A stretch of DNA of 32,365 nt, taken from positions 64,947 to 97,311 of the IMG/VR virus record IMGVR_UViG_3300037424_000553; one strand, given 5' to 3'. Below, one piece after another: positions 1,189 through 25,497 of the stretch. Every line of letters begins with the position of its first letter. The first letter of the stretch is position 1. Under the pieces are notes generated by a model. The model did no database searches and was not told the origin of the DNA. It saw only the letters and a list, made by a program, of their open reading frames with translations. Source of the stretch: a virus. A program made the position numbers and the translations under genes.

Positions 1189-1678
1189 TACGATTCTCCA
1201 GATACCGAGCCCCAGCCATGGCATAGAGTAGGGCATCAGCTTGATGCTGCGTGAGAGTCTTCTGACTGAACCGCTTCTGCATGTCAGCCAGCACATACTC
1301 CTTGTTCGCACGAACAGTGCGACCATTCCTGTTGACACGTGTTTCCTTGAGCGCGTGCCCATACACCCGTTTCTGCGCTGAGCTGGTCGTCACCATCACC
1401 CATGGGATCTCAGGCCTGTTGTAGGCCAGGAACATCTTGAGCCCGCCGATCCACTGCGCGATACGATAGAGAAACGGATGTTCCATCGTCACAGCCTCGA
1501 TGTGATACTTCCGCTCCATGTCAAGCACTAGATTCCCAAGCTGCCGGTAGTGCGCCTGCTCAGTGTCACGCTCGCTGAAGACGATCGCCATCGACTGCAA
1601 CATCTTGTCCTTCTTGGAATCGTATACACCATACCCACCGACGTACTTCCCAGGAACATCGATGCCGAGGATGATCAT
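1181..1678 (-). CDS. RuvC-like Holliday junction resolvase
   Basis: N-terminal IILGID, central VTMEHP, C-terminal HQADAL acidic motifs; ATGA overlap with the upstream gene. Confidence 0.8.
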   Translation of the reverse strand: MIILGIDVPGKYVGGYGVYDSKKDKMLQSMAIVFSERDTEQAHYRQLGNLVLDMERKYHIEAVTMEHPFLYRIAQWIGGLKMFLAYNRPEIPWVMVTTSSAQKRVYGHALKETRVNRNGRTVRANKEYVLADMQKRFSQKTLTQHQADALLYAMAGARYLENRNG

Positions 1679-2616
1679 GCTTCGGTGAAACAATCGTCAA
1701 GAATCGTAGCATCTCGCATAACATGCTCACCACGCCGCTTGATCTTTGCGAAGTGCGTCAAGAGCGAGAGGATACCCTGCCAGTATGGATCCACCATCGG
1801 AAAGTCCGGTGCAGGCATGAGCTGATCGCCCCACAACCTGACGTTCCGCTCGTAGTGCATGATCGCTGACCATTCACCAGACTCAGGCTTGCTCATCCGT
1901 GGCATCGTGTACCCGTAGGACTCTTGATCCAGGATCTCGTTCGCGAGATTCATCTCGTTCTCATAAAAATGCATCGACCCAGTGTTCTGAATGTGCATCC
2001 CGACGTCGAGCCCAACATGAACTGCCACCCATTCGTGTAGCATCGTGAACAAGAAAATATCGTATGGGTAGACCATCACAATGTTCTGACTCCTGAACGT
2101 CGTGATGCAATGCAACCGCCTGTGACGAACGAAGAACTGCATCGAGATCGGACAGGGGATGTCCTTCGAATCGATGTGATCCACCGCCCCACTGAAGATA
2201 GTAACCACTGCCCGTCGTGATGCCGGATCAGCCTTGAGCATGGCAATCACGCTCTCAAGCTGCCTGATGATCCGTGGGCCATAGGCACCGTGAAGTGAAA
2301 CACCATCATCAGAAAACTTGGTGGTGATGGGGTTGTAGTAGAGCAGTGGCTCCACGCTGTCGGTCTCCATGAACTGATACATGAAGTTCCCGAAGGCGAA
2401 CCCAAGGTTGATCGGACGAGCCAGGCTGCTAATGATACGTGAGCGTGGATACTCGAGATCCATCCTCAATCCAAGCAGCTCGATGGTCTTATGCGATGCG
2501 CTCGGCGACGTCTTGTTCAGCAGCGGTTGCACCCACTCCCCATTCTCCATGACATCACGAACTGCGATTTTGTAGAGACCAGTGCTCGTCCCACTTTGTA
2601 GATGATCACTCGACAT
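1675..2616 (-). CDS. Thymidylate synthase-superfamily pyrimidine-modifying enzyme, probably dCMP-specific
   Basis: GAYGPRI, DPASRRAV, catalytic Cys in DIPC, RSQNIVMVYPYD, GSMHFYE; Asp at the position of E. coli ThyA Asn177. Confidence 0.88.
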   Translation of the reverse strand: MSSDHLQSGTSTGLYKIAVRDVMENGEWVQPLLNKTSPSASHKTIELLGLRMDLEYPRSRIISSLARPINLGFAFGNFMYQFMETDSVEPLLYYNPITTKFSDDGVSLHGAYGPRIIRQLESVIAMLKADPASRRAVVTIFSGAVDHIDSKDIPCPISMQFFVRHRRLHCITTFRSQNIVMVYPYDIFLFTMLHEWVAVHVGLDVGMHIQNTGSMHFYENEMNLANEILDQESYGYTMPRMSKPESGEWSAIMHYERNVRLWGDQLMPAPDFPMVDPYWQGILSLLTHFAKIKRRGEHVMRDATILDDCFTEA

Positions 2617-4387
2617 GGATGCTACTCCCCTTCGCTGTCTTGATGACGCGAATGATATGATCCGATGGATAGGCCAAGAGCTTCGGGTTCTGTGAGATAC
2701 AGAAGATACTGCTGAAGTCCTTCCGTTGCGTGCTCAGAAAATCCATGACACGCTCGCACCCTGTCTCATCCAGGTGCTCGAAGATCTCATCATAGAGAGC
2801 CAACGAGAACCGTCCATGATGTAGTTCGCGCGTGAGATCCTGAAGTGCCAGTACGAGGCAGAGATCCACACGCTGTTTCTCGCCTGAGGAGAGATCATCG
2901 TACACCTTGGCCCCGTACTTGTTCTCAACCTCGAACGTAATCTCTTCACGAACATCACCATTCTTCAGGATGCGCTGGGCCGAAAAACGCGGGATGAGCT
3001 CACCAGCCGTGAGGCTCTGGCTGTAGCTGAGGAGCTTCCCTTGAATGAAGCCCTCGTAGTCTCTGAGCATCATCGCCTTCATGCCCTTGTGCCCGAACCC
3101 TTCCACCCAAAAGTCGCGGAGATCAACCTCCGCTGTGAGTGCCGTGATATCACGCTCGTATTTCTCTCGATCACGCTGCAAGACCTCAATCCGCTCCAGC
3201 ATCTCATCCGCAGCCTGGCGCATGAATCGTGCCTCATCAAGCTGACTCACGTGCCGCTCTAGGTCTTGAGTCTCCCTGAGCGTTCGCTGAAGCTTGGCAT
3301 GCACCAGCGCGTAGTCGTCATCAGCACGAGACGTTGGCCAGGTATGTAGCACGTGAGTCAGGGCACTGTTGTAAATCACCAACCGCTGCACTTCATCATA
3401 CAATGGCCTGATCAGTGTCTCGAAATGCTGATCCACCTCGATGCGCTCAACCTTACCAATCGTCCGTCGGCACATCGCGCACCGCCCAGCATTGATGATG
3501 CTATCATGATCACCCTGTATCCCCTCGATCCGCCGCACGATCGTTTTAGCGACCTGATCCATCTTGTTACGCAGGGCAGAGAGCGTGGTCGAATCATCCA
3601 CCAGGACCTGATGTCGCTCACTCGATACCTTCGTCACTTCAAGCTGAACATACAAGGTGTTGATCTCATCATAGAGATCAAGCCGTTCGCGGTGACGATC
3701 AAGCCACTGTCGCATCGCTTCGATTTCGGCCTGCTCCCGCGACTGCTCCAGGTTGTCGCGCTCACCTTGAATCGCCTCGAGCTGACTGTTCACCAAATCC
3801 AACTTGTGTTTGAGATCACTCAGGGCATCGCCAAACTGCCGAGCTTCGATCTCGACAGCCTTACGGCGATCACCAAAGAAAGCAAGATCCAAGAGATCAT
3901 CGAAAATCTGCTTGCGTGGAGCATCAGACATCCCAGCAAACTTTTTCTCTTCGCTGACCCCATACAGGATAGTCTGCACGAACGCTCGATAGGAGAGCCC
4001 GAAGTAGGTGGCGACTTTTTCTCCACTCCCCACCAGCTCATACTTTTTCCCATCGTGCTCGTACAGCTCCCAGCGTCGCTTGGATCCACTCTGCTCCCGT
4101 TCCACAACGTACGGCTTCTTATTCACGGTGAAGTACAGAGCAAGCCACATCTTGTCGGCGTCGTTGTTGATGAGCCGCGCCCCGCTGCTGCCCTTGAGGA
4201 GGCGATCGTACGCCGCGATGGTGATGGCATCGAACAGGGCAGTCTTGCCTGCCCCATTGGATCCAGCCATCCGCGATACTCGATTCTCGCCTACAACGAA
4301 GGTCACGCCTTGCTTCGCGAGTGGGACGCTGAATTCACCCACGAAGGGCATGAAATCCTTCCCATGAATCGATTCGAGTTCGATCAT
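2606..4387 (-). CDS. Rad50/SbcC (T4 gp46-like) ATPase
   Basis: Walker A GSNGAGKT, coiled coils, Zn hook CAMC, signature LSSGEKQR, Walker B LYDE; next to an Mre11-like gene. Confidence 0.92.
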   Translation of the reverse strand: MIELESIHGKDFMPFVGEFSVPLAKQGVTFVVGENRVSRMAGSNGAGKTALFDAITIAAYDRLLKGSSGARLINNDADKMWLALYFTVNKKPYVVEREQSGSKRRWELYEHDGKKYELVGSGEKVATYFGLSYRAFVQTILYGVSEEKKFAGMSDAPRKQIFDDLLDLAFFGDRRKAVEIEARQFGDALSDLKHKLDLVNSQLEAIQGERDNLEQSREQAEIEAMRQWLDRHRERLDLYDEINTLYVQLEVTKVSSERHQVLVDDSTTLSALRNKMDQVAKTIVRRIEGIQGDHDSIINAGRCAMCRRTIGKVERIEVDQHFETLIRPLYDEVQRLVIYNSALTHVLHTWPTSRADDDYALVHAKLQRTLRETQDLERHVSQLDEARFMRQAADEMLERIEVLQRDREKYERDITALTAEVDLRDFWVEGFGHKGMKAMMLRDYEGFIQGKLLSYSQSLTAGELIPRFSAQRILKNGDVREEITFEVENKYGAKVYDDLSSGEKQRVDLCLVLALQDLTRELHHGRFSLALYDEIFEHLDETGCERVMDFLSTQRKDFSSIFCISQNPKLLAYPSDHIIRVIKTAKGSSIHVE

Positions 4388-4479
4388 TTTCCTTTGAGCC
4401 AGGCGCTCTTGCATGCATTACAGAAGTACTCACGTACACGATTCTCGATATCATCAGATCGGCAGTACGGGCAGCTCAT
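4384..4479 (-). CDS. Zinc-ribbon microprotein (31 aa)
   Basis: Manual translation MSCPYCRSDDIENRVREYFCNACKSAWLKGK; two CxxC pairs; its stop overlaps the Rad50 start (ATGA). Confidence 0.65.
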   Translation of the reverse strand: MSCPYCRSDDIENRVREYFCNACKSAWLKGK

Positions 4480-4486
4480 GCGTACT

Positions 4487-5536
4487 CTAAGACTCCAGAA
4501 CTTTGCGCCCATAGTCGACGTAGGCCTCCTTCAGATCATCTGGAACCTGCCGATGCGCCACGTAGCCTTCAACCAGTTCCTTGAACGAGCGTGATCCGGC
4601 AGCCTGGAGCCGAACGATCTGGGCCTGATCCACACGCTCTGGCCTGATGTCGAGGTAGCGTGGGTTACATTGCTCGAGCCGCTTGACGAACGCGCTATCC
4701 AGCGGACGCTTGGAGAAGAGTCGAATCAGATTCCCCTTGAACAGCCCATCGAAGTCCTTCCAGTTGATCGCATCAGGATCGCCAATCGGATCGACGTGCA
4801 TCACTACAAACTTCGGTGACTGTAACTCGAGTGTTGAGACACGCCCATCAGGATCAACGTAGAGTACACCCTTGTCCTGCTCCAGCTCACCAAAGTCTTT
4901 CGCGATGAAGCTGCCTGGATAGTCGACACCGTGAACATGCTGACGCTTGTGGAGATGCCCAGCGAATGCCCGTCCGTAGAGTCCGACACCAAGTGACTTC
5001 TCGGTGAATGTCGACTTGAGCATGTAGTCTGTCGGTCCAACTTCGGCACCATCGAGCTCACCATGAAACATCAATGTCTCGCGTTCCTTCTTCTGCTGTT
5101 TCAAGAATTTCAGCACCCGCTCCTGTTCATACAACCACGGAGCAAAGACGATGTCGTTGACCGTATCAACCTCAGGCTCGATGATGACGTTCGCAAACGC
5201 TTTGAATGACCAGATCGTCACGCTATCGTAGCGATCGTTTTCCCGGTCATGATTCCCGGCGATGAAGAACAAGTTGAGATCCCGGGCATGGTAGAAGTAG
5301 TTGAACACCTGATTCCGCACTTGCTCGTTTATATTCTTCTTCAGATGAAAGACATCACCGAGTACGTAGATCGCCCGGACATCCAGCTCACGGGCATAGC
5401 CAATCATTTCACGGAGTGCGTTACACCAGTCCAGGAGTCGCCCGTTGATCCCACCGGCAGGCTCCCCGCCTTCCTTCCAGTCATGCGCATGGAGATCCGC
5501 GCACACGATGAACCCGCGCTTCTTTAATCCCTTCAT
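4487..5536 (-). CDS. Mre11/SbcD (T4 gp47-like) metallophosphoesterase nuclease
   Basis: ADLH, GDVFH, GNHD, FHG, GHLH motifs. Confidence 0.92.
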   Translation of the reverse strand: MKGLKKRGFIVCADLHAHDWKEGGEPAGGINGRLLDWCNALREMIGYARELDVRAIYVLGDVFHLKKNINEQVRNQVFNYFYHARDLNLFFIAGNHDRENDRYDSVTIWSFKAFANVIIEPEVDTVNDIVFAPWLYEQERVLKFLKQQKKERETLMFHGELDGAEVGPTDYMLKSTFTEKSLGVGLYGRAFAGHLHKRQHVHGVDYPGSFIAKDFGELEQDKGVLYVDPDGRVSTLELQSPKFVVMHVDPIGDPDAINWKDFDGLFKGNLIRLFSKRPLDSAFVKRLEQCNPRYLDIRPERVDQAQIVRLQAAGSRSFKELVEGYVAHRQVPDDLKEAYVDYGRKVLES

Positions 5537-6606
5537 GTCGTGCAGAGTTGATGCATCCGGATCATGAATGCCTGCTCACTCTGATACGTTGGAACAACAC
5601 CACCAAAGTAGAAATCAAGAAAGTTCGCTGGCAGTTTGCCGCTATCAATGAGAACGCGAGGCTGATGATACTCGGCGGCCAATCGACCGATGTTCTCGAC
5701 ATCAGCCCACAGTTCAACAAGATTCCCCGTGTACTCTCCACGCATGTAAGCTTCGGTGACGCGTGCAATGTAAGCCGTTGGATGCGTCCGGCCAGTGATC
5801 TTGAATGATGAAATACCAAACGTCATGTGGTACCGACGAACCCACTGTGGGAGAATGAACCGTGCCCACAACCATTCAATCGGCTTGAGCACGCGCTCAC
5901 GGATACAGTTGCCCATTGGATAATGCCCATACATCTTGACCTCATCCTTGGAGAGATTGAGCGCGTGCAGATCATAACACTGGTTCCGGTCGGCACACTC
6001 ATAGACACAAAATTCGTTGACGATGGTCTCGAGTGTGATCCCAAGTGATCGCGAAAGCATCATGAACTGCGCCAGTTTCTCGCCATCGCGATTGGCAAAA
6101 ACATCCAAGCAGATCTTCTCGATGCTCGGACAGCGCCGCTTGAGCTGCTCAAGCTGCCGCGGATGACGAAGCTGAAGAATTGTCGAAAGTTCAATCGGCA
6201 GCGTCGGGCAGAGATCGTTAACAATCTGCGCGACAAGCGGATGTGCAACCGTGACTCGAATCACGCCGATTGACTTTAGAAATTCTAGGAACTTCACAAT
6301 CGTCGCTTCATGTGCCTTGAGTTCACGTGGATCCACCGCCGACGTATTGATCGTGTAGTTCATGCCAAATCCGTAGGACAACGCTTTGGCAACGAATGCC
6401 GCCAGAAACTCCTCATTATCATCCTTGAGCCGGAACGATGGCCGCGCTGTCCCGATCGGGTTGACACTTGGCAAACTCCCGTACAACTCAGTGATCTGCC
6501 AGGGTTGATCGAGGCTATAGCGGACATTGAGTTCATGGAGCTGATCCAGAAGCTCAAGGTCGAAGTTGCATCCTACTTTATAACTGATCGGATGAAGTGT
6601 CGACAT
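5533..6606 (-). CDS. Peptidase U32-family protein (Fe-S-dependent hydroxylase-type)
   Basis: NYTIN, IELST, Cys cluster IVNEFCVYECADRNQCY, later NC, and FKITGR matching the U32 (L/F)KIxGR motif. Confidence 0.82.
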   Translation of the reverse strand: MSTLHPISYKVGCNFDLELLDQLHELNVRYSLDQPWQITELYGSLPSVNPIGTARPSFRLKDDNEEFLAAFVAKALSYGFGMNYTINTSAVDPRELKAHEATIVKFLEFLKSIGVIRVTVAHPLVAQIVNDLCPTLPIELSTILQLRHPRQLEQLKRRCPSIEKICLDVFANRDGEKLAQFMMLSRSLGITLETIVNEFCVYECADRNQCYDLHALNLSKDEVKMYGHYPMGNCIRERVLKPIEWLWARFILPQWVRRYHMTFGISSFKITGRTHPTAYIARVTEAYMRGEYTGNLVELWADVENIGRLAAEYHQPRVLIDSGKLPANFLDFYFGGVVPTYQSEQAFMIRMHQLCTT

Positions 6607-6618
6607 TGGAATCCTCCT

Positions 6619-7533
6619 TCAGAGGTATTGGCAGACTTCGCCGTACGCTTTCGCCACCACACTGAGTTTGTACTTCGCACAGAAGCTCATGAATCCATCG
6701 TAGTCCGGTGTCGGGAAGTCAAACGTAACTTCGGCGAGCGCATGCTTCTGAATGAACAGGGCAGCATGGAGCGAGACCAGCTTGAAGTTCCGCGCAAGAT
6801 TCCGTTCGGTCTCCGCATCGCCATTGAACGTCATGCTCTGCATATCACTCACTTCACGGAGTTGGTCCAGGCTCGGCAGATGGAGATCCCTGGAGAGCTT
6901 CTTGGCCTTGCTCTCTCCCATTCTGTTCACAGCTGGAGGGACCCCATCCCCAGGATCTCCCCTGAGACACTTGAACGCAAGGTAGTGCCCCGGGGAGTCA
7001 AACCCTGTCAACCTGGAGAAGCCAGTCAGCCCCAGATGAAACTTCTTACGGGGATCGTAGATCCAGACCCCTTCCCGGATCAGTTGCCAGAAATCTCGAT
7101 CTGTGCTCACCACCAGAGCTGGTCTCCAGGTGCTGTTCATCACAGCTAGGGCCACCAAGTCGTCACCCTCAACATCGGTGCACTGTACCTGCGAGACCGC
7201 AAGATTGCCAAGGGCTTCACGGAAAATCGACATCTGATAGTCGATGTCGTTGAACTGCACTGGGCCAAGCTTGCTCGTCCGCACCTTGTACCCGGCCCAC
7301 AACTTTCGCCTGAACGCTGACTTCTCATCCCATGTAATGATTGTCCGCTCAGGTCGATACTTCGCTACGTGTCGGAATAGCTCCGCGAGACTCCCATGAA
7401 TCAGATTGGTTGAGCCAAGCCCTTCAACAGAGAGTTGTCCCTGATAGGCATACCAACTCCGCATCGCCAGGTTTTTCCCGTCGATGATGAGCGTCTTGAT
7501 CTTAGGCAGGACGCTGGCGTCGTCGCTCGACAT
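6619..7533 (-). CDS. 5'-3' exonuclease / flap endonuclease (T4 RNase H, PolI N-terminal-like)
   Basis: LIIDGKN, FRRKLWAGYK, EGDD, STDRDFWQL, LRGDPGDGVP. Confidence 0.92.
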   Translation of the reverse strand: MSSDDASVLPKIKTLIIDGKNLAMRSWYAYQGQLSVEGLGSTNLIHGSLAELFRHVAKYRPERTIITWDEKSAFRRKLWAGYKVRTSKLGPVQFNDIDYQMSIFREALGNLAVSQVQCTDVEGDDLVALAVMNSTWRPALVVSTDRDFWQLIREGVWIYDPRKKFHLGLTGFSRLTGFDSPGHYLAFKCLRGDPGDGVPPAVNRMGESKAKKLSRDLHLPSLDQLREVSDMQSMTFNGDAETERNLARNFKLVSLHAALFIQKHALAEVTFDFPTPDYDGFMSFCAKYKLSVVAKAYGEVCQYL

Positions 7534-7891
7534 CGAAGTATAGAACCTCTTCTACAGTGTAGAACACTGGCTTGCCTTTTGAGTGCGTATACGCCACTTC
7601 CTTGTCCGAGCCTGGTGAGGTTCCCGGCAGCCGGAGCAAGCCGTGGCACTTGTCGATCCAGGCGAAATCGAACGGGAGCCTGATGCGGTAGATCTCTTCA
7701 TCATTCTCGTGCGGGACGATCATGTTCCAGAGTGCATTCACCTGCGGGAGAAATGGAATGATACCGGCCTTCAACAGAACATCAGCAACCTTGCAGGCAT
7801 CATGAATCCCCTTCTCGAGATGTGCCCGCATTGGCCCAGCCACGTAGATGTAGGTCTTCTCATCAACCAAGAGACACGCCGGGCAGGTCAT
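7502..7891 (-). CDS. Nucleoside 2-deoxyribosyltransferase-fold protein (DUF4406/DUF1937-like)
   Basis: YIYVAGPM, PFLPQ, DFAWIDKCHGLLRLPG, SPGSDKEVAY, GKPVF. Confidence 0.75.
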   Translation of the reverse strand: MTCPACLLVDEKTYIYVAGPMRAHLEKGIHDACKVADVLLKAGIIPFLPQVNALWNMIVPHENDEEIYRIRLPFDFAWIDKCHGLLRLPGTSPGSDKEVAYTHSKGKPVFYTVEEVLYFDVERRRQRPA

Positions 7892-10834: not shown

Positions 10835-11377
10835 CTATCTCCTCTCCCTGCGTTGTTGAACTGCATGTCGGTCCTGTTCCCGCTCGACTTCTGCTCTGGC
10901 GATCGTCCCAGCCTTACGGGCCAGGTCGACATCCATCTGCCGCCTGATGTTCGTGGCCAGTGCCACCAGCATATCCCGGCGGTGGGTCATCGCATCCCGC
11001 GCTGACTGGAGGCGATCAACCACTTTCTCCCACTTCAGCTTGTCATCTTCCAACTCCCGATACTTCCTGTTCTGGCTGATACGCGCCGCAACTTCCTTGT
11101 CCGTCGGTTTCTTCTCACCTTCCCCACCATGCTTGTACTCCTCGAAGAGATCTCCCTCGAGGCGATCCATCTTCAGCTTGATGAACGCGATCGCATCCTT
11201 GGCATCGGAGTGCATGGTCGCCCAGAGCGCGAACTTGGCTGGATGATCTGCCAACTCCGTATCGATGTTCCGATCATCGATCGTTACCTCATCGTAGAAG
11301 TTGACCTTCCACGTCTTGCCATTCGGTGTGATAACAGACCACTCGGCGAAGTGATCTCGTAGCTTCAGTGGCGGCAT
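10835..11377 (-). CDS. UvsY-like recombination mediator (coiled coil)
   Basis: IDDRNIDTELADHPAKFALWA start, helical body, KPTDKEVAARI, AMTHRRDMLVAL; position next to SSB and recombinase. Confidence 0.7.
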   Translation of the reverse strand: MPPLKLRDHFAEWSVITPNGKTWKVNFYDEVTIDDRNIDTELADHPAKFALWATMHSDAKDAIAFIKLKMDRLEGDLFEEYKHGGEGEKKPTDKEVAARISQNRKYRELEDDKLKWEKVVDRLQSARDAMTHRRDMLVALATNIRRQMDVDLARKAGTIARAEVEREQDRHAVQQRRERR

Positions 11378-11799
11378 TAGGCTCCACCTCCAATCTGACT
11401 CTCCCTGAGCCGCTGCTGTTCCTGGTTCATCCGCTCCTCAACGATGATACTCTTCCGAATGAACATCTCCTTGAACTTCGACCGGATCTCCGGCATGTAC
11501 ACGGGAATGTTCCAGATGTACTTCTGCGCATCGACGAATTCCTCGATCGCCGCCTCCATGTCGATGGGCCGATCCAGCTTGTGCACCTTGTAGTTGGTCG
11601 CCTTCTCGAGAAATTCGATGAGCTCACCGATCGCGCTGAGCACCATCTTGATCACCATGTCATTGCGTTCGACTGGTGTCAATTCCTCGGGCACTTCCTT
11701 CCCAGGGAACTTCAGCGCAATGACGCGCTCCTGAAACCTCTCTTGATAATCGATGTAATCCTCGAGTGTCTTGAGCGTATTACTCGTCGTTGGTGTCAT
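11377..11799 (-). CDS. All-alpha (dimeric dUTPase / T4 gp56 dCTPase / MazG-type) dNTP pyrophosphatase
   Basis: GELIEFLE...YKVHK...AIEEFVDAQKY metal-binding pattern; start uncertain (11799-11832). Confidence 0.75.
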   Translation of the reverse strand: MTPTTSNTLKTLEDYIDYQERFQERVIALKFPGKEVPEELTPVERNDMVIKMVLSAIGELIEFLEKATNYKVHKLDRPIDMEAAIEEFVDAQKYIWNIPVYMPEIRSKFKEMFIRKSIIVEERMNQEQQRLRESQIGGGA

Positions 11800-14700
11800 C
11801 ATCATCTCCATCCTTCTCGGATTTTTCATCACCCTTGTTGCGCTTGATCGTGTTCTCTCTGAGCTTCGCCCGCTGCTTGTCGGTCAAGCCCGGCACCAAC
11901 AGCTCCCATTCCGTCTCCGGATAGCACGCCACCAAGATCCGATACGACGGTGGGAAGATCAGCTTGCTCCAATAGTAGTCGTGATCGTAGATCCCCTTGA
12001 AGTCGTCGACGTGCACCGCCTGAAGCTTCGGCTTATACCCGGTCACGATATAGGGCACCTTCATGCCCACGTAGAATTCACCACCCGCATCTCTGAACTT
12101 ACGGGCGATCTCAACATGCACGGTCTTGGCCTTGTAACTTTCAATAGCCCGTGCGATACCCTTGGTGATTGTGATCTGCTCGATAGGCAGCTCGCCATTC
12201 AGGACCTTCTCACGCTCGGACATAAGAAAGTCGACGAGATGTTTCCGATTCACCTTCTGCCTGACCACCATCTCGATGATCGTCCGTTGCATGTCCCGGG
12301 CATACTCGATCCCATCCGAGCGCATGCACTCGAGCCCCTTCACCTCGGTGAAGCTCGCCTTCTTCCCCTTGTACATCGTCATCAGCCCTGCGTAGCGCTT
12401 CTTCCGGACAAAGAACATCCGGCTGAAGTAGTTCTCGTATTCCAGCTCGACGAGGAATCGTGACTCTGGAATGCCAAACTTCTCGTAGAGATGTTTCTTC
12501 AGATACTCGTTGCACCCAGCAACGAACGATGCACCCTGATCAGCCGGGAGTTTGATGTACATCGAGTCGGTGTCACCCGCCAGTGGTTCCAATCCTTGGA
12601 GCTTCGTGTAGTCGATCGCCTGCTTGAGGATGTACTGCCCACCAAGCGTGACCGCCTCGGCGACTTTGGGATTGAAGTAGCGACTCTCGACGTTGCCCAT
12701 ATCACCGTAGAAGGAAAGCCCCAGTCGCTTGAACGAATACGCCAGTCTGTAGTAGAGCAGAAACAGATCCGAGCCGACCTCTTGATCGGCCTGGAGCTTC
12801 TGGTAGACCTTCCGTTTCTCACCCGTGTCTTGGAAGATCTCCGGGATGAATCCCTTGCGTGACGTGAGGAACTTTGTCCCTGTCGGCGCGGTCACATACT
12901 CCGAGGGATCGAGCTTCTTCGCCTGCTCATCGGTGATATACGTCTCAGGACTGATGTTCCAGGCGAGCATCACTGATGGATACAGACTCTTGAAGTCGAC
13001 CGCCGCTACATCTTCGAAGATCCCAATCTTAGGATCCAGCACGTACGCCCCTTCGTACATACTTCCTTCAACACCGTACTCCCGCTTCTTGAAGTCGACC
13101 TTCCCACCTTCCTGCATGATGCGAACTTTCTTCGTCGGAAAGTGCATCCCCACCTGCTTGCCACGCTTGAGTAGCAGTGAATCGATTTTCGTGGTGATGT
13201 GATAGTCCCTGGCGAAGCAGTTCCCAATCCGCGAGAAGACCTGGTCAATCTTCGCATAGCCTGAGTGCTGCTCGAGCTGAACAAGCAGATTCGCATCGTA
13301 GCGGTTGTACTCCTCCAGAATGTCTGGCGCCTGCCGGTACAGCTCGAGGAATCGATGGACGTTGAGCCCACGATCCTTACACTTCTCTCGCCAGTCCAGC
13401 TTGCTTGTCTTCAACTGATGCTGCGCGATGGACTGCAATGAGAAGCTCACCATCGCCGATGCCCCACGCTGATGATACCGCTTCCAGGTCCTGAGCAGGT
13501 CAATGGTATGCGTATAGTCCCAGCGCGCTGTGACACCATGCATCCGCATCCGTTGCCGCAGGATCGGGAAGTCGAAGTTGTTCCCGTTCCAGGCATACAT
13601 GATGTCGATCTCTGGCATCTCGCGGGCGAACTTGATGAGCATCATCTTCTCTGAGCGATCGTTCTCCTTCTCGAGCAAGAGGAATCCCTTGCGAGGCTCA
13701 CGACTCTTGTCCTTCCAATGTGTCTCCCAGGCTATCGAGAGAATACGACGTTCGGCAAGATCCCGACGATCGATGAGTGGCTTGGTGTCATCGGTCTCGA
13801 TGTCAATGTACATCTCATCATACGCGCTCTGGATCTTGATGTCGTAGTCTGTGAGAAACCGGCGGGATGGTGTCAGATCCGCTTCGTAGTGCTTGACGCC
13901 CTCCTTCTCGATATCATCTAGCAACTCTCTGAGCAGACGATCCTTGGGATATTTCTTGAGGATGTTGTCGTCCCAGAGTGTGAGGTAACTCTCGAGGAGA
14001 TGCTCCTTCAAGGCCGCGGTACGAATAACCCACCGCTCGGAGTACACCTTGGTCCACTCTGGATTCACTTCATCCGGTTCGAGACGATGAACAGCGCCTT
14101 CCTTCATCCAGTATGCCCAGAACTTCTGCCCAAGCTTGAGTGCGTCTGTCGTCCTGAGATAGAAGTACCAGTTGAAATCGATGCCACCACGAACAACTTC
14201 TTCAGATTTCTGTCCATTGGCATTCGCGTAGACCAGTACAACATTCTTGCCGTCTGACCAAGCTGTGCTGTACTCTCGCTTGTCGTTCCATGGATTCCGG
14301 GAGAACACACCGGACTTGGCTTCCAGGGCGGCGATGACACTCTTGTCCTCTTGATGATGTTCAGTCCTGGTCTGATCGACGTACGTCCCCGTACTCGACT
14401 CCCCGACCAGAACAAGCGCCCGCTGGAGCATGTCCATGACCTTCCGCCGTGTGGTCATGTCCTGCGGGTTGTAGATGAAATGCGCCGGATGATAGAGCGG
14501 AATGATGATGTACCCGTTCTTCTCGATCTCACGCCCAAGCAACTCCTTCATCGGGCTGTTGAGATCCAAGAGGGCCTTCACCGCATAGGCACCCCAGGCA
14601 AGAATCACCCGCGGTTTCACCAGCGCGATTTCTTTCTCCAGCCATTTCTTAGTACAGGTGTCAATCCACTCCTGTTTAGGCTTGGCAATCTTGCCCTTGT

Positions 14701-14941
14701 CGTCGTAACCAGGGAAGCACTTCACAGTATTGGTCACGTACATCTGCGCCCGACTGAAGCCTGCCTCCTCCAACATCTGATCGAACAGAACACCAGACTT
14801 GCCGACCAGCGGGCGCCCCGCCTTGTCCTCACTCGGTCCCGGCGCCTCGGCAACAGACATGATCCGCGCCTTGGACGGTCCTTCGCCAAACACGACCTGC
14901 TTGGACGTCTTATGACAGTCACAGGCTGTGCACCGCATCAT
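11780..14941 (-). CDS. Family B DNA polymerase with N-terminal family-4 uracil-DNA glycosylase-like domain
   Basis: UDG: CTAC, VFGEG, AEAPG, GRPLVG, TNTVKC, YHPA. Exonuclease: DIET, WNGNNFD, YNRYD. Polymerase: DFKSLYPS, KRLGLSFYG, AGDTDS, KKRYAG, KGLE. Confidence 0.95.
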   Translation of the reverse strand: MMRCTACDCHKTSKQVVFGEGPSKARIMSVAEAPGPSEDKAGRPLVGKSGVLFDQMLEEAGFSRAQMYVTNTVKCFPGYDDKGKIAKPKQEWIDTCTKKWLEKEIALVKPRVILAWGAYAVKALLDLNSPMKELLGREIEKNGYIIIPLYHPAHFIYNPQDMTTRRKVMDMLQRALVLVGESSTGTYVDQTRTEHHQEDKSVIAALEAKSGVFSRNPWNDKREYSTAWSDGKNVVLVYANANGQKSEEVVRGGIDFNWYFYLRTTDALKLGQKFWAYWMKEGAVHRLEPDEVNPEWTKVYSERWVIRTAALKEHLLESYLTLWDDNILKKYPKDRLLRELLDDIEKEGVKHYEADLTPSRRFLTDYDIKIQSAYDEMYIDIETDDTKPLIDRRDLAERRILSIAWETHWKDKSREPRKGFLLLEKENDRSEKMMLIKFAREMPEIDIMYAWNGNNFDFPILRQRMRMHGVTARWDYTHTIDLLRTWKRYHQRGASAMVSFSLQSIAQHQLKTSKLDWREKCKDRGLNVHRFLELYRQAPDILEEYNRYDANLLVQLEQHSGYAKIDQVFSRIGNCFARDYHITTKIDSLLLKRGKQVGMHFPTKKVRIMQEGGKVDFKKREYGVEGSMYEGAYVLDPKIGIFEDVAAVDFKSLYPSVMLAWNISPETYITDEQAKKLDPSEYVTAPTGTKFLTSRKGFIPEIFQDTGEKRKVYQKLQADQEVGSDLFLLYYRLAYSFKRLGLSFYGDMGNVESRYFNPKVAEAVTLGGQYILKQAIDYTKLQGLEPLAGDTDSMYIKLPADQGASFVAGCNEYLKKHLYEKFGIPESRFLVELEYENYFSRMFFVRKKRYAGLMTMYKGKKASFTEVKGLECMRSDGIEYARDMQRTIIEMVVRQKVNRKHLVDFLMSEREKVLNGELPIEQITITKGIARAIESYKAKTVHVEIARKFRDAGGEFYVGMKVPYIVTGYKPKLQAVHVDDFKGIYDHDYYWSKLIFPPSYRILVACYPETEWELLVPGLTDKQRAKLRENTIKRNKGDEKSEKDGDDDDTNDE

Positions 14942-15549
14942 GGCACCTTGATTCCTTCTCCGGCATTCAGGCGTCTGAAGACGGCTCTAACAAACGCCCA
15001 CTGATTCTCGTACGACAGTCGCGAGACACCATCGGGATAGAGCAAGGACGCCGGATGATTGACGTACACGCTGATCCATCGATAGGACGCTCGCTCATCA
15101 ACGAGACGCGACTCGTACCACTGACACTTGAATGACTGCGTAAGCCCGATCCGCTTGCCTGCTACATTTCCGAGCGCGACAATGAGTTTCAGGTTGGGCA
15201 ATCTGACGAGCTCACTCTCTAACCAGTCAGCGCACTTGTTGACGTACTCGTCATGTGCCTTGCCCTCGCACTTCATCGCGTTGGTCACATAGAAATCCTC
15301 GAGCCTGAATCCAGCGTCAGTCATGACCGAGCGAAGGATCTCACTGCCCTTGGTCGTCTCTTGAGAATCCCAGAGATGTAACTCAAACGGAATGCGCTTG
15401 GGATTCTGTGGGACCGCATTCCCTGGATTCTGTGCGAGCAGCAGCATCGACGCATCAACATTTCCAATGCCAAGCCCCTTACTCGCCCGGAGCAGGCAAT
15501 GATCGCACTTGCGAATGACGTCGTTAAGTGTAAGTGACTCTAAGACCAT
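14938..15549 (-). CDS. Stand-alone uracil-DNA glycosylase-superfamily protein (Fe-S type)
   Basis: CDHC, LLAQNPG, YVTNAMKC, later C, IVALGNVA, NHPASLLY. Confidence 0.82.
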   Translation of the reverse strand: MVLESLTLNDVIRKCDHCLLRASKGLGIGNVDASMLLLAQNPGNAVPQNPKRIPFELHLWDSQETTKGSEILRSVMTDAGFRLEDFYVTNAMKCEGKAHDEYVNKCADWLESELVRLPNLKLIVALGNVAGKRIGLTQSFKCQWYESRLVDERASYRWISVYVNHPASLLYPDGVSRLSYENQWAFVRAVFRRLNAGEGIKVP

Positions 15550-16063
15550 GATGCCTCATGATCCGCTGGAAATCAATCACCAGCGCATCGATCGAACGTG
15601 TCCCATCGAGGATGTGCGTCTGATACAGATGCGTCGACAGTCCATGCGTCCATCGCTCGTATGCTTGATAAATCTGCGTATGCCGCTCAGTGATGACGCC
15701 CATATCTCCTCGGTCACTCATGCGCCGCTGCGCGACCTCTTGTGGTACACGGAGATAACACACGACAAGTCCGCCCGGCTCCCATGGCCCTCGATAGGCT
15801 GGGATCGGGCGGTTGTAGACTTGCGCGTAGATCGGACCTGTCACGACGGCAAAGCGATCGCAGATATACGTGCTTGCTCGATCGTACATCGATGAGAAGA
15901 GAGCAATGTCGCGTTGTTCCAGTTTGGCGATCTGCTCCCATAGATCTCGATCGAACGGTCCCCAGTTCACAAACTTCATGTTGTCGAACGTGAGGAGTTG
16001 TTTGAGCCGATGGTACAAGGTGGTCTTGCCGCATCCATCGGGTCCTTCGAGAGCGAAGATCAT
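15524..16063 (-). CDS. dNMP kinase (thymidylate-kinase fold)
   Basis: P-loop LEGPDGCGKTT, ICDR motif, lid QRRMSDRG. Confidence 0.85.
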   Translation of the reverse strand: MIFALEGPDGCGKTTLYHRLKQLLTFDNMKFVNWGPFDRDLWEQIAKLEQRDIALFSSMYDRASTYICDRFAVVTGPIYAQVYNRPIPAYRGPWEPGGLVVCYLRVPQEVAQRRMSDRGDMGVITERHTQIYQAYERWTHGLSTHLYQTHILDGTRSIDALVIDFQRIMRHHGLRVTYT

Positions 16064-16287: not shown

Positions 16288-16445
16288 ATACTCTCCGTGT
16301 ACAACTCCTTGCCATCAACTGTCCAGCCCTGCAGCTGTAAGTATCTCTCCCATCGCTCTCGCTGCTCCTGAGCATCGCCTTCCGAATACTGACCTTGAAC
16401 TTCCCGACGAATTGTGAGAATGATCGTTGTCTTGGGCATACTCAT
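16284..16445 (-). CDS. Hypothetical protein (53 aa)
   Basis: Manual translation MSMPKTTIILTIRREVQGQYSEGDAQEQRERWERYLQLQGWTVDGKELYTESM; ATGA and GTGA overlaps at its ends. Confidence 0.6.
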   Translation of the reverse strand: MSMPKTTIILTIRREVQGQYSEGDAQEQRERWERYLQLQGWTVDGKELYTESM

Positions 16446-17608
16446 CCCTGTATCAGCTTCAGCAGTGTCGGTTTAATGTTGCGAGCCCAGACTGCCCCGT
16501 ACTCTCCGGCGTTCATGTTCCGTGTCAGATGAATGAGCTGGTCTTTCGTTGCCCGCTCATAGAGTCCGCTCTCGAAGATCCCTTGAATGAATCCGGCCAT
16601 GTACTCGGCGCCCATGTTGGAGAGCAGGCCTGGCCAGTCCTTGTCAACAAGATCTTTGTACCCATCACAATTCAGCAGGATCGGGAAGGCACCACAGGCG
16701 ATCGCTTCACGGATACTCTCGCCACCGAATCCATTATCGCAGAGACCGATGACAGCCTTGCTGCGCCTGAGAAGCCGGGTGTACGCACCCAGATTCTTGT
16801 TGGTACCCTCCTGGACATAGACGTTCTCGATGCCCTCGAGCAACTTGTTCTCGGTGAGATAGCGCGTCTGATCAGGGAAGTAGACCTTCCCTTGCCATCC
16901 AATCTCACGCAGCACCTTGAGTGCTGCAATGAACTCCACGTGATGTGAGTAGTTGGTGCTACTCCCACGCAGGACGAACAGCAGATCGATGTCACGCTCC
17001 GGCGGTGCCCAGTTCTGGGACTGAATGGGATCGTGCAATTGCTGAATATTCCATGCGAATGGCCAGAGCTGAACACCATCGATTGCCTTCTCGAAGTCTC
17101 TTTGCTTCGCAAGATGATCGCGAATCCGTTGCCGCATACTCGGACTCAGGCATGTGATGACATCCGCCTTCTCATAGTTCATGTCGAACAACGGACTCAT
17201 CCATGGCCATGCTGTCTCCGGTGAGAGATTGTGATGCTGAATCACCTTCATCTTCGGATAGGCACCTTTGATCGCCCACCCGATGAGCTCATGCGAGGTA
17301 AAGAGGATATCGACATCCTTGAACAGCGTCGGCCAGCGATGCGGATACCACTCGAGCCGCTGCGCCATATTCTCTGCCGGGATCGCTACTTCATGGATGT
17401 CAAGCATATCACCCGTCCCATCCCACGCTGGGAGCGTCTGGCAATCCTTGAGTTGCGGCACCAGCAGGCGAATCTTCCAGCCCAGCTCCTCATGGATCTT
17501 GTGCGCCATGAACATGATGTGCTTGGTGGCAACACAGGAATGCAGCAGGAATTTCCCAGTCTGCTTGTCCTGCTGCGAGTAGAAGGGCAGGAGTGCGATT
17601 CGTGTCAT
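16442..17608 (-). CDS. GT-B fold glycosyltransferase, probably DNA-modifying
   Basis: ADVITCLSPSMR, DLLFVLR, YTRLLRRSKAVI, FGGESIREAIACGAFPIL (GT-B donor-binding motif); embedded in the replication module. Confidence 0.8.
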   Translation of the reverse strand: MTRIALLPFYSQQDKQTGKFLLHSCVATKHIMFMAHKIHEELGWKIRLLVPQLKDCQTLPAWDGTGDMLDIHEVAIPAENMAQRLEWYPHRWPTLFKDVDILFTSHELIGWAIKGAYPKMKVIQHHNLSPETAWPWMSPLFDMNYEKADVITCLSPSMRQRIRDHLAKQRDFEKAIDGVQLWPFAWNIQQLHDPIQSQNWAPPERDIDLLFVLRGSSTNYSHHVEFIAALKVLREIGWQGKVYFPDQTRYLTENKLLEGIENVYVQEGTNKNLGAYTRLLRRSKAVIGLCDNGFGGESIREAIACGAFPILLNCDGYKDLVDKDWPGLLSNMGAEYMAGFIQGIFESGLYERATKDQLIHLTRNMNAGEYGAVWARNIKPTLLKLIQG

Positions 17609-22789: not shown

Positions 22790-24280
22790 CTATTGTTGAT
22801 AGCACTTGATGAGCTCGATCTTGTAGCCCTCGGAGCGATATGCCTTCATCCGCCCGGCACTGTGATCTAACAGCCGCCCGTGCGTCGCATCCAGAAAGTC
22901 GTAGATGATTGACTGGACCTTCCCCTTCCTGGTCCGGGCATTGCGTCCAGCCTGCTGTTTGGCTTTGGTCGGACTCTCCATCCCACAGGCGTTAACGATG
23001 ACATCGATCTCCGGGATGTTCACGCCTTCCTTGAGTACAGTCGTGATGAGCAGAGGACGCTCGGCTTTTACAAAGCGATGGAGGATCGCAAGCCGCTTGA
23101 ACATCGGCTGCTCCCCATGGAGGAACTGTGGACTCCACACCGCCTTGCCCGCCATGCTCTTGCCCAGATACTCGAGGAAATCCCCGTGATCGACCCGATC
23201 AACGAAGATCAGCACCCGCTCCCCGGCTTCACAGTGCGCCTTGATGGTCTTGTACATCGCGGTCGCTCTGGGTGGATAGTCACAGATCCCACGCTCGTAG
23301 AGGCCACCAGGCTGAAAGAATCCTGCCGTCGAGATGTGCTCCAGCGCGTCCGGTGTCTGCTCGTAGCTGATCATCCTGACTGTCGTTGGCACCGAGAGTC
23401 CGCGCTTGACCAACTCCTGCGTGCTCACGCTGCTCTTCAGGACCGAGCCGGTGAAGCCGATCAGGGTCATGTCCTTCACCTTATCCCCACCCAGTGGTGT
23501 GGCCGAGAGCGCATACTTGTACATCGCTCGCTTGGCCTCGGTGAAGACCTGTCCCCACTTCTTCCCCTTGAAGTGATGCCCCTCGTCGACCATCACCATC
23601 TCGACTTCATCGCGGAGCCAGCGCAGGAATGGATCATGCCGAGGATCTGGGCCATCGAGTGCCTTGTCAATCCGCTTGACGATGCTCTGCACCATGCCTA
23701 CCGTGAGCAGCGCTGGCTTGAACGTGCCCTCATCACGGATCTCCCCGACGGGCATCCCAGGCAGGAGTTGCTTCACATCGAGTGAGAATTGTTTGAACAA
23801 CTCCTTGGTCGGGACGATGTAGAGTGTGTTCACCCGCAGGCGTCGAATAATCTCCATCGCAATGATGGATTTTCCTGCGTTCACCGCGGCCAGGATGATG
23901 CCACGTCGCTTGAGGAGGCTCTCATCGACGATCTGCCCCTGGTAGTCTCTGTTCGGATCTTCAGTGATGCCCACTAGTGGCGGCAGCTCAGGGAGCCTGG
24001 GTGTCGGCACCACGACGCGCCGATCATCGATCTGATTCAGCGTGATGTTGCTACCGTTGAGCAGTGCCTGCACGTGATCGAGGAGTCCAGTGGCGAACCC
24101 ACCGTTGATCCCAAAGAATCTGATCTTGCCATCCCAGAGTCCCTGACGAACCTGCGGGCTGAAGCGGGCACCCTTGATGGGCACAGCCATCGCCTCGTAG
24201 AGCATTGACTTGAGCTCAGGGTCCAGGTCAGGGATGCGACTGCGGATGGATCCGACGAAGACGTCGACCTTCTCGCTCAT
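22790..24280 (-). CDS. SF2 DEAD/DEAH-like helicase (UvsW-like)
   Basis: WDGKIRFF, RDYQ, NAGKS, DEGHH, SAT, EGVNIP, QQAGRNAR; start at 24280 by ATGA overlap. Confidence 0.92.
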   Translation of the reverse strand: MSEKVDVFVGSIRSRIPDLDPELKSMLYEAMAVPIKGARFSPQVRQGLWDGKIRFFGINGGFATGLLDHVQALLNGSNITLNQIDDRRVVVPTPRLPELPPLVGITEDPNRDYQGQIVDESLLKRRGIILAAVNAGKSIIAMEIIRRLRVNTLYIVPTKELFKQFSLDVKQLLPGMPVGEIRDEGTFKPALLTVGMVQSIVKRIDKALDGPDPRHDPFLRWLRDEVEMVMVDEGHHFKGKKWGQVFTEAKRAMYKYALSATPLGGDKVKDMTLIGFTGSVLKSSVSTQELVKRGLSVPTTVRMISYEQTPDALEHISTAGFFQPGGLYERGICDYPPRATAMYKTIKAHCEAGERVLIFVDRVDHGDFLEYLGKSMAGKAVWSPQFLHGEQPMFKRLAILHRFVKAERPLLITTVLKEGVNIPEIDVIVNACGMESPTKAKQQAGRNARTRKGKVQSIIYDFLDATHGRLLDHSAGRMKAYRSEGYKIELIKCYQQ

Positions 24281-25497
24281 GTGATTAAAGTGTGCGAGCC
24301 GGGGCATGGCAGTCGATTTACTCGATGAAACGTCAGGTACATCGTCTTTCCTGCCTTTGCCCAGATCTTCAAGTACTGTTTACACACCGGACATTGACGA
24401 CGAGGTAGTGCATCAAAGGTATGTGACGATCGAATACGAGCAGCCCGTTCATCAGCTCGTGCATTCACCGCCGCGGCTCCCATGTAGTTCTCAAGACTCC
24501 AAAGCCAATCACGGGCATCGAGATCAGGATTGAATCGTGCGATCCATTTTGCCTTGGTGAGTTTCACCTGTGTCCCAGGTCGATGCCGTGGCGCCTTGTG
24601 CTCGACGTACATTCCGTTCGGACAGAAGATGCGTGATCCATACTCGTGCATTTCATCGACCGAGACAATGTCACGTGTTGAAAGCAAATTGCTATTGACT
24701 TCAGTGAAGAAGATTCCAGGTCGAACAATCCCGTCACGGATCCGACTCAGACGCCACACGCTCCACAGCATCGGGACACCGGTTGACGAGTTGTACATAC
24801 CCGCCCGCCAGAGTTTGGGCTGTGAAATGATCTGTGTGCGTCCGACAATCATTGCCCGTCCTGAATCACGAAGAATGGGTGCCCAGAATTCAGTCAAGGC
24901 ATCTTGTAAGACAAGCAGACGTCCACGATCATGGGCAACAGGGAGAAACGAAGTATTGGTTCGATCACCCATTCCATAATACTCACCCAACTCTGTCAGA
25001 CGTCGAAACACTGGAGGGATCTCGCGACCACGCTGAATGTTGATTCCGATGACGCGGGGTTGTAGTGCCCGATCGACACGCTGAATTGTCTCGATCGTTC
25101 GTGGACTGAGATTGCTGTTGAGATCTAAATTGATGATGTCAACCTTGAACTGCTTTGATAACGCAATCCGCTCGGCGGCTTGATCAACTGGCATCGCATA
25201 GGCCGACGTAATCGCTGGATATCGTTCGCGCAAGCTGTCGATGACATTCTGATCACCGTCAACAATGCTAATTCTTGTCGGGTTGACACCACGCTTGATT
25301 GCTTCATCAATCTCGAGCCCTTCCAACGATGGCAGCATCAACACCGCGACATCATCAAGATGATATTTGTCTTGACGATGATATGCTCGAGATCCGCAGG
25401 TCTGAATGGCTTCCCATTTCTCACGGCGATAGTTGACTTTTTCTCTGAACGAAAATCCTCCATCTGGAGCACGACGTTTCTTGAATGAGACTGTCAT
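24277..25497 (-). CDS. Hypothetical protein with possible class I SAM-methyltransferase fold and C-terminal Zn finger
   Basis: VLMLPSLEG / ISIVDGD / VDIINLDL strand pattern; C-terminal CPVC...H...CPGS. Confidence 0.5.
   Translation of the reverse strand: MTVSFKKRRAPDGGFSFREKVNYRREKWEAIQTCGSRAYHRQDKYHLDDVAVLMLPSLEGLEIDEAIKRGVNPTRISIVDGDQNVIDSLRERYPAITSAYAMPVDQAAERIALSKQFKVDIINLDLNSNLSPRTIETIQRVDRALQPRVIGINIQRGREIPPVFRRLTELGEYYGMGDRTNTSFLPVAHDRGRLLVLQDALTEFWAPILRDSGRAMIVGRTQIISQPKLWRAGMYNSSTGVPMLWSVWRLSRIRDGIVRPGIFFTEVNSNLLSTRDIVSVDEMHEYGSRIFCPNGMYVEHKAPRHRPGTQVKLTKAKWIARFNPDLDARDWLWSLENYMGAAAVNARADERAARIRSSHTFDALPRRQCPVCKQYLKIWAKAGKTMYLTFHRVNRLPCPGSHTLIT

Follow-up and report, generated by a model that had tools for sequence, protein, structure and literature searches.

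The U32-family proteins characterized in Escherichia coli are hydroxylation factors (PMC10990095, PMC5727448, PMC6599085). RlhA is needed for the formation of 5-hydroxycytidine in 23S rRNA, for which Fe-S biogenesis and prephenate are also required (PMC5727448); TrhP gives rise to 5-hydroxyuridine (ho5U) in tRNA without O2, in parallel with the O2-dependent TrhO (PMC6599085); the function of both RlhA and TrhP genetically requires prephenate (PMC5727448, PMC6599085), which is the proven oxygen donor for UbiU-UbiV (PMC10990095). In phages, the thymidylate synthase (TS) homologues RB69 gp48 and DLP3 gp80 form 5-hydroxy-dCMP (5hodCMP) from dCMP; both synthases are flavin-associated and take the oxygen from O2 (PMC13326640). 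The present analysis concerns a U32 gene in a stretch of viral DNA of 32,365 nucleotides, referred to here as the window, which comprises positions 64,947 to 97,311 of IMG/VR record IMGVR_UViG_3300037424_000553. A preliminary description of this DNA had stated, in agreement with the literature cited above, that characterized U32 proteins are RNA or quinone hydroxylases rather than proteases and that RlhA and TrhP depend on prephenate, and had proposed that the gene encodes an O2-independent hydroxylase of DNA or deoxynucleoside monophosphates. The sequence and comparative evidence tips somewhat in favor of a virus-specific, [4Fe-4S], prephenate-dependent enzyme that would hydroxylate C5 of dCMP without O2, as a back-up to an O2-dependent TS-fold enzyme. 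The gene is as follows.

5533..6606, minus strand: U32-family protein of 357 residues, predicted to bind an Fe-S cluster, candidate prephenate-dependent pyrimidine C5-hydroxylase (PF01136, phrog_5757)

The assignment to the U32 family, made earlier by eye, is borne out by profile searches: PF01136 (Peptidase_U32) is the only Pfam match to the protein and scores 40.2 bits against a cut-off of 22.4 (E 3.1e-10), and phrog_5757 matches residues 8-313 with an E value of 5e-60. An AlphaFold2 model of high confidence (pLDDT 94.8, pTM 0.93) has the U32 barrel fold, for which the top match in the Protein Data Bank (PDB) is 5d88 (Mk0906; Foldseek E 5.3e-8), the remaining matches being generic TIM barrels. 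A sequence search of the PDB likewise returned only 5d88 and no solved relative of UbiU, UbiV, TrhP, or RlhA. The protein does not belong to any of the subfamilies defined by the E. coli paralogues. The TrhP equivalog model NF011996 gives 14.9 bits against a cut-off of 534, over residues 261-289 only, and neither DUF3656 nor the C-terminal domain of TrhP was found in the protein by Pfam search; it also does not cluster with RlhA. Its identity to UbiU and UbiV is 16-19%, it lies outside their clade, and it is encoded by a single U32 gene in the window, flanked by genes for FEN and SbcD.

In a tree of 70 sequences, made up of 66 phage-type proteins and E. coli UbiU, UbiV, TrhP, and RlhA, a long branch parts the four E. 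coli paralogues from all of the phage-type proteins (SH-aLRT 87-91). Nesting within host tRNA or rRNA hydroxylase clades, which the preliminary description had named as an outcome that would speak against its proposal, is not seen; the phage-type proteins form a separate, virus-dominated clade, in which the window protein sits in a well-supported metagenomic subclade and RB69 gp50, Thanatos TH2_068, and Entb_45 gp106 share a different one. With its full-length profile match and its position in this clade, the window protein falls in the viral U32 subfamily typified by PHROG 5757 and RB69 gp50. A whole-library search with the protein returned 905 representative clusters at E <= 1e-3 and 527 at E <= 1e-10, the nearest Atlas clusters are 100% and 67% viral, and all 19 of the relatives whose loci were fetched lie on viral contigs. 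Among sequenced phages the subfamily is present in 222 records, all of them T4-like and all about 37% identical to the window protein. The sole match among 185,579 species-representative genomes, scanned with a single peptide pattern, is on a phage contig in the genome assembly of a methanogen. The strong impression from these sequence comparisons is that the window protein belongs to a large, virus-specific U32 subfamily. The methanogen contig (L037, CAYNSJ010000015.1, from a Methanobacteriaceae assembly) is a tailed-phage fragment encoding tail proteins, a depolymerase, and a peptidoglycan glucosaminidase, and is probably mis-binned. One relative, P0076, is of double length (699 residues), with 63% identity and two matched stretches, and represents a fusion or tandem form of the viral U32.

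The Cys-rich segment EFCVYECADRNQC (Cys200, Cys204, and Cys210), the downstream Cys234, and the FKITGR motif, all noted previously, are present in the protein. In an alignment of 193 relatives, Cys204 is invariant, 192 sequences retain Cys200 and 192 retain Cys234, and position 210 is occupied by Cys in 145 sequences and by His in 47. Cys200, Cys210, and Cys234 align with Cys169, Cys176, and Cys193 of UbiU, Cys170, Cys177, and Cys193 of TrhP, and Cys169, Cys176, and Cys192 of RlhA; UbiU with the C176A mutation is reportedly impaired in binding the cluster and no longer functional (PMC10990095). The first three positions of the canonical C-x6-C-x15/16-C-x3-C motif of TrhP and RlhA are aligned and conserved in the phage protein, but the fourth is not Cys. 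The likely fourth ligand, judging from the alignment, is the invariant Cys204, which lies in a phage-specific insertion, and the window protein is predicted to bind an Fe-S cluster. A C-terminal CxnCx3CxxC motif in 146 of the 193 relatives may bind a second cluster or form a second Fe-S or zinc site.

The association of U32 genes with a particular type of TS gene is central to the proposed function, and the window contains such a gene.

1675..2616, minus strand: TS homologue with a 5-hydroxy-dCMP-synthase signature (PF00303, 1.4e-20; alignments with ThyA and RB69 gp48)

Relative to E. coli ThyA, whose numbering is used here, the window TS carries the substitutions L143D, D169N, and N177D. The second and third of these are common to RB69 gp48 and DLP3 gp80, RB69 gp48 has the very same RSQN motif, and D169N is the diagnostic residue for 5hodCMP synthases in Lee et al. 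2026 (PMC13326640). The nearest named relatives of the window TS in BLAST searches, the SPO1-like and PaMx11 dUMP hydroxymethylases, keep Asp169 and Asn177. Three further genes of the window may belong to a pathway leading to 5-hydroxycytosine (5hoC).

11377..11832, minus strand: MazG-like all-alpha NTP pyrophosphohydrolase (phrog_173, 4.5e-6)
15524..16063, minus strand: small thymidylate-kinase-like nucleotide kinase (phrog_761, 3.7e-17)
16442..17608, minus strand: GT-B glycosyltransferase, candidate DNA 5hoC glycosyltransferase (Glyco_transf_4, 1.7e-4, below cut-off)

The kinase is related to its counterpart in the DLP3 5hoC cluster, gp78 (BLASTP E 8e-8). The glycosyltransferase (GT) shows no similarity to DLP3 gp79 but is homologous to GTs beside U32 or TS genes in the uncharacterized loci L014 and L023 (BLASTP 1e-11 to that of L014). 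The MazG-like protein may act as a dCTPase and thereby provide dCMP while excluding dCTP. Because of the TS signature, the gp78-like kinase, and the GT homologous to those of U32/TS loci, the phage of the window very probably makes glycosylated 5-hydroxycytosine.

A TS gene lies within 10 kb of the U32 gene in 7 of the 19 viral loci (L006, L013, L014/15/18, L019, and L023) and directly adjoins it in L013, L014, and L023; the remaining contigs of this set are 6-70% complete. Every TS within this distance, in the seven viral loci and in RB69, Thanatos-2, and Entb_45, has Asp177 together with Asn or Ser at position 169. In L006, whose U32 protein is a 68% identical relative, the U32 gene adjoins those for SbcD and SbcC, and the TS homologue is a few kb further, whereas in RB69 the U32 protein is gp50, encoded within the arabinosyl-5hoC cluster gp45-55 at a distance of one small open reading frame (ORF) from gp48. 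Other neighbors of U32 genes in the viral contigs are dCMP deaminase, dUTPase, GT4 and GT1 transferases, UDP-galactopyranose mutase, and a class II ribonucleotide reductase (RNR). The mutase gene (L022:8517-9680) is close upstream of U32, with one small ORF between, an arrangement reminiscent of the galactofuranosyl-5hoC pathway that has been proposed for Rhizobium phage RL38JI. In L007, a gene for a fused thymidylate-kinase-like/dCMP-deaminase protein is immediately upstream of U32, and one for a radical-SAM/SPASM protein lies nearby (L007:9012-9956 and L007:6633-7574); an unannotated family of 350 residues (F8) recurs beside U32 in L007, L011, and L013. The class II-type RNR (L014:2709-6194) seems to be encoded in two parts, between which an ORF is inserted, and has domains for intein splicing where the parts meet. 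The best TS match is on a human-faecal phage contig, MT837767, that is too short to show a U32 gene.

A second association is with chorismate mutase, the product of which is prephenate. A chorismate mutase gene is directly beside U32 in three independent arrangements. In L010, a DAHP-synthase/chorismate-mutase fusion (L010:11059-12078; 1.6e-39 and 1.2e-19) is directly downstream of U32; in L016, a separate chorismate mutase of 84 residues is followed by a DAHP synthase directly upstream of U32 (L016:1407-2360); the third arrangement is that of the T4-like phages, in which a mini-chorismate mutase of 79-85 residues adjoins the TS gene in 51 records, from phages of Klebsiella, Serratia (including LC53 and 92A1), Yersinia, Enterobacter, Edwardsiella, Erwinia, Shewanella, and other hosts. 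In both of the T4-like loci that were fully inspected, those of Entb_45 and Thanatos-2, the mini-mutase lies between the U32 and TS genes, and that of Thanatos-2, TH2_069, matches Pfam CM_2 with 32.8 bits against a cut-off of 27. The small ORF049c of RB69 (L001:9152-9391) holds the same position between U32 and TS, but its identification as a chorismate mutase was rejected, as it has no Pfam or NCBIfam match and no BLASTP similarity to the mini-mutases of Thanatos or Entb_45. Another human-faecal phage contig, MT837090, has a fused DAHP synthase/chorismate mutase at its very end and is too short to show a U32 gene.

A third line of comparison concerns oxygen. The host of DLP3, Acinetobacter baumannii, is a strict aerobe. 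The DLP3 cluster is syntenic with that of RB69 apart from the missing U32 and p049 genes, and a U32 profile search of the whole DLP3 genome found none, while Thanatos-2, a Shewanella phage, and RB69 each have one. More broadly, TS of the gp48 type is found in 57 records of Acinetobacter phages, and Acinetobacter is not among the ten genus names listed for the 222 records with U32, only 12 of which come under the 7 names outside this list. The suggestion that the window's phage infects an anaerobic or low-oxygen host finds slight support in the likely origin of the sample, a sediment metagenome, which also counts in favor of an O2-independent enzyme; the class of RNR is uninformative as an indicator of oxygen because no RNR of class I, II, or III was found in this phage.

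From what is shown above on family membership, fold, conservation of the ligands, the neighborhood of the gene, and the associations seen in relatives, we infer Fe-S binding, the use of prephenate, the substrate, and a division of labor with the TS homologue. In the proposed scheme, the MazG-like protein together with host enzymes would supply dCMP. When O2 is present, the TS-fold enzyme (1675-2616) would make 5hodCMP, by homology to the O2- and flavin-dependent enzymes that have been tested. When it is absent, the U32 protein would oxidize the pyrimidine through its [4Fe-4S] cluster, with transfer of the oxygen of the C4 hydroxyl of prephenate to C5 of the pyrimidine and release of phenylpyruvate, as in the scheme proposed for UbiU-UbiV (PMC10990095); on a deoxynucleotide, this would be the equivalent of the reaction presumed for RlhA at C2501. 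The prephenate would come from the host, since the window's phage lacks a chorismate mutase. The small kinase and host enzymes would then phosphorylate 5hodCMP for incorporation by the phage polymerase, and the GT-B enzyme would glycosylate 5hoC on the DNA, giving DNA resistant to restriction. Among cytosine deoxynucleotides, dCMP is most likely the substrate on grounds of parsimony, and the window protein, which consists of the catalytic barrel only and has none of the additional domains that follow it in TrhP and RlhA, is of a form that fits a small-molecule substrate. In more general terms, there is a slightly better than even chance that phages of several unrelated lineages use a dedicated U32 Fe-S protein, often with their own chorismate mutase, to make 5-hydroxy-deoxycytidylate without O2, prephenate being the oxygen donor. 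Of the preliminary proposal, an O2-independent hydroxylase directed at deoxynucleoside monophosphates or DNA remains the reading with the best comparative support, from the chemistry of the family, the co-occurrence with TS, the adjacency of chorismate mutase, and the absence from the phage of a strict aerobe, but this support is circumstantial.

Several points weigh against this scheme. To our knowledge, no experiment has been performed with any phage U32 protein. The predicted ligand set of the phage proteins has a non-canonical pattern, C-x3-C-x5-C/H...C, with no Cys counterpart of TrhP Cys197, and the subclade of the window protein (relatives of more than about 45% identity) has a plain helix in place of the C-terminal CxnCx3CxxC motif. 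No chorismate mutase is encoded by the phage itself. Several contigs with U32 show no TS of the 5hoC type, and the TS of L012, located elsewhere on its contig, has the canonical Asp169 and Asn177, so that the substrate need not be cytosine everywhere. The split between aerobic and anaerobic hosts rests on very few independent lineages, and about 40 records of Escherichia phages have a gp48-type TS without U32 (177 versus 137), indicating that U32 is dispensable even in facultative anaerobes. In aerobic E. coli, the TS homologue and the kinase already suffice for 5hoC (PMC13326640), and direct hydroxylase activity has been reconstituted for no U32 protein (PMC10990095).

The alternative that survives best retains the prephenate chemistry and changes the substrate, to cytosine in DNA after replication, or to dUMP or dCTP in place of dCMP. 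RlhA and TrhP do work on polymers (PMC5727448, PMC6599085), the U32 gene lies among the DNA-handling genes for FEN, SbcCD, and UvsX, and U32 occurs both in contigs without a 5hoC-type TS and beside genes for dCMP deaminase and dUTPase. However, the window protein has no nucleic-acid-binding extension, the co-occurring TS genes are of the dCMP type, and in RB69 and DLP3, where cytidine is fully replaced, the base is made as the mononucleotide (PMC13326640). A different substrate is unlikely.

It is rather improbable that the protein is an accessory redox enzyme, serving as a reductase for the flavin of the TS-fold hydroxylase or acting on a sugar or heterocycle. The Fe-S ligands are present, in the more complete genomes U32 usually accompanies the TS homologue and does not replace it, and RB69p050 is listed, in Table 1 of the study of the RB69 cluster, as a "sugar or heterocycle reductase" and nothing else (PMC13326640). 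That label, however, is based only on the fold match to 5d88, the literature examined contains no U32 reductase, and such a role would explain neither the adjacency of chorismate mutase in three arrangements nor the absence of U32 from a phage of a strict aerobe that still uses the flavin enzyme.

A phage-borne RNA hydroxylase, similar to TrhP or RlhA, that adjusts translation in the infected cell through modification of the host's tRNA or rRNA would agree with the fact that RNAs are the sole known nucleic-acid substrates of U32 proteins (PMC5727448, PMC6599085) and with the weak local match to the TrhP model. It is made very unlikely by the score of that match (14.9 versus 534 bits), the absence of DUF3656 and of the TrhP C-terminal domain, the long branch to all four E. 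coli paralogues, and a context that is consistently one of nucleotide and DNA modification. Finally, although database records carry the labels "peptidase," "collagenase-like protease," and "putative protease" and PrtC and HP0169 are reported to be collagenolytic (PMC5727448), a genuine collagenase-like peptidase, as in most database annotation, is scarcely credible for a protein with a conserved Fe-S ligand set, encoded in a cytoplasmic replication operon, in a family for which no protease catalytic motif has been described and whose characterized E. coli members are hydroxylation factors (PMC10990095, PMC5727448, PMC6599085).

The record that contains the window is an IMG/VR virus of 97,311 bp, estimated to be 92% complete, of which the window is the final third; a megablast search with 5 kb of the window gave no match to sequenced phages. 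The phage is uncultured, its sequence coming solely from a metagenome. According to profile searches, the genes surrounding the U32 gene, all on one strand, form a replication and nucleotide-metabolism module that includes the TS homologue, SbcC, SbcD, U32, FEN, a deoxyribosyltransferase-like protein, UvsX, a gp32-like single-stranded DNA-binding protein, a UvsY-like protein, the MazG-like pyrophosphatase, a DNA polymerase of 1053 residues preceded by a uracil-DNA glycosylase (UDG)-like gene, the thymidylate-kinase-like kinase, the GT-B-like protein, primase, and DnaB. The position of the U32 gene between the 5'-3' exonuclease and Mre11 genes, reported earlier, is confirmed by the FEN and Metallophos/SbcD matches on the two sides, with SbcC beyond. 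The flanking genes and the signals at the ends of the U32 gene are listed below.

2606..4414, minus strand: SbcC/Rad50-like ATPase (phrog_77, 4.3e-70)
4487..5536, minus strand: SbcD/Mre11-like nuclease, the downstream flank (Metallophos, 1.3e-8; phrog_100, 2.4e-36)
5533..5536, minus strand: ATGA stop/start overlap with the SbcD-like gene, suggesting translational coupling (from the sequence)
6613..6618, minus strand: Shine-Dalgarno sequence AGGAGG, a strong ribosome-binding site 6 nucleotides 5' of the U32 ATG (from the sequence)
6619..7533, minus strand: 5'-3' exonuclease/FEN, the upstream flank (PF02739, 1.2e-23)

The previously noted 4-bp overlap with the Mre11-like gene is found as ATGA, formed by the TGA stop of U32 and the ATG of SbcD, and the stop of the exonuclease gene (6619..7533) lies 12 nucleotides 5' of the U32 start. 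The U32 gene does have more A/T-ending codons than its neighbors, as had been seen by eye, with a third-position GC content (GC3) of 0.589 compared with 0.657 and 0.675, but the separate acquisition that this was taken to hint at is not supported, as the value is only the third lowest among the 30 genes of the window (z = -1.34). The lowest GC3, 0.486, is that of an ORF for 406 residues at 24277-25497 on the minus strand, without a PHROG match, which is a better candidate than the U32 gene for recent acquisition. Between the FEN and UvsX genes, a nucleoside 2-deoxyribosyltransferase-like protein of 129 residues (7502-7891, minus strand; phrog_355, with DUF7768/DUF4406 below cut-off) may serve another function in nucleotide salvage or modification. 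The UDG-superfamily gene (14938-15549, minus strand) directly precedes that of the DNA polymerase (11780-14941, minus strand), the N terminus of the polymerase also clusters with UDG-like ORFs, and UDG-like genes near U32 recur in other loci, including L037.

If the proposed function is correct, a deoxynucleotide or DNA would for the first time be a substrate of a U32 protein, and the protein would be an anaerobic twin of the O2- and flavin-dependent TS-fold 5hodCMP synthase. The known substrates of the family, a ribosome precursor, tRNA, and a membrane prenylphenol, are awkward to handle (PMC10990095), and a soluble small molecule would allow simple assays and the reconstitution of prephenate-dependent hydroxylation in vitro. 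It would further account for the ability of phages of bacteria from gut and sediment to retain an anti-restriction DNA coat based on 5-hydroxycytosine although the only described synthase needs O2, and would bear on phage-host arms races and on the use of phages in anoxic niches. In the literature searched, neither phage U32 proteins nor phage chorismate mutases are linked to 5hoC, and the Thanatos, Durham-collection, and Tn-seq papers make no mention of U32 or chorismate mutase.

Among the closest known systems is RlhA (YdcP, the 5-hydroxycytidine synthase for C2501 of E. coli 23S rRNA). It shares the U32 barrel and the three aligned Fe-S cysteines with the phage protein, and the reaction proposed for the latter is likewise the hydroxylation of cytosine at C5, dependent on Fe-S and prephenate. 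However, the substrate of RlhA is a ribosome precursor, and its 653 residues include DUF3656 and Cys residues at the C terminus, whereas the phage protein is a barrel of 357 residues; the two are 24% identical, are separated by a long branch, and differ in the fourth ligand position. TrhP and TrhO, which act on uridine 34 of tRNA, offer a parallel in the pairing of an O2-independent, prephenate-dependent U32 enzyme with an O2-dependent one that makes the same 5-hydroxypyrimidine, a pairing that is mirrored by UbiUV and UbiIHF; the counterpart here would be the U32 protein and the TS-fold 5hodCMP synthase. The differences are that the substrate of TrhP is tRNA and that the O2-dependent partner in the phage has a flavin-dependent TS fold and not a rhodanese fold. 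UbiU and UbiV, the O2-independent ubiquinone hydroxylases, resemble the phage protein in being barrel-only (331 and 292 residues), and their small-molecule substrate, [4Fe-4S] clusters, and use of prephenate as the oxygen donor match what is proposed for it, but they form a heterodimer that works together with UbiT, hydroxylate a prenylphenol and not a nucleotide, and have only 16-19% identity to it. By sequence, no solved structure was matched except that of the U32 protein Mk0906 of Methanopyrus kandleri (5d88; E 6e-4). Mk0906 also gives the best match in fold (Foldseek E 5.3e-8, TM 0.67 on target), but is 15% identical, with a sequence alignment that covers only the N-terminal part of the phage barrel.

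A further counterpart is in RB69, where gp50 belongs to the same viral U32 subfamily (37% identity, phrog_5757) and, as in the window, is accompanied by a small kinase, a GT, and a TS homologue that carries D169N and N177D. The arabinosyl-5-hydroxycytosine cluster, gp45-55 in RB69, is represented in HY126 by the Afh genes. The window, in contrast, is from a 97-kb sediment phage of a lineage other than the Straboviridae. Its U32 gene is between those for FEN and SbcD, with SbcCD separating it from the TS gene, and it lacks the arabinose-nucleotide genes, the chorismate mutase, and the C-terminal Cys4 motif. The window therefore extends the pairing of U32 with a 5hoC-type TS to a sediment phage that is not T4-like and has a different gene order.

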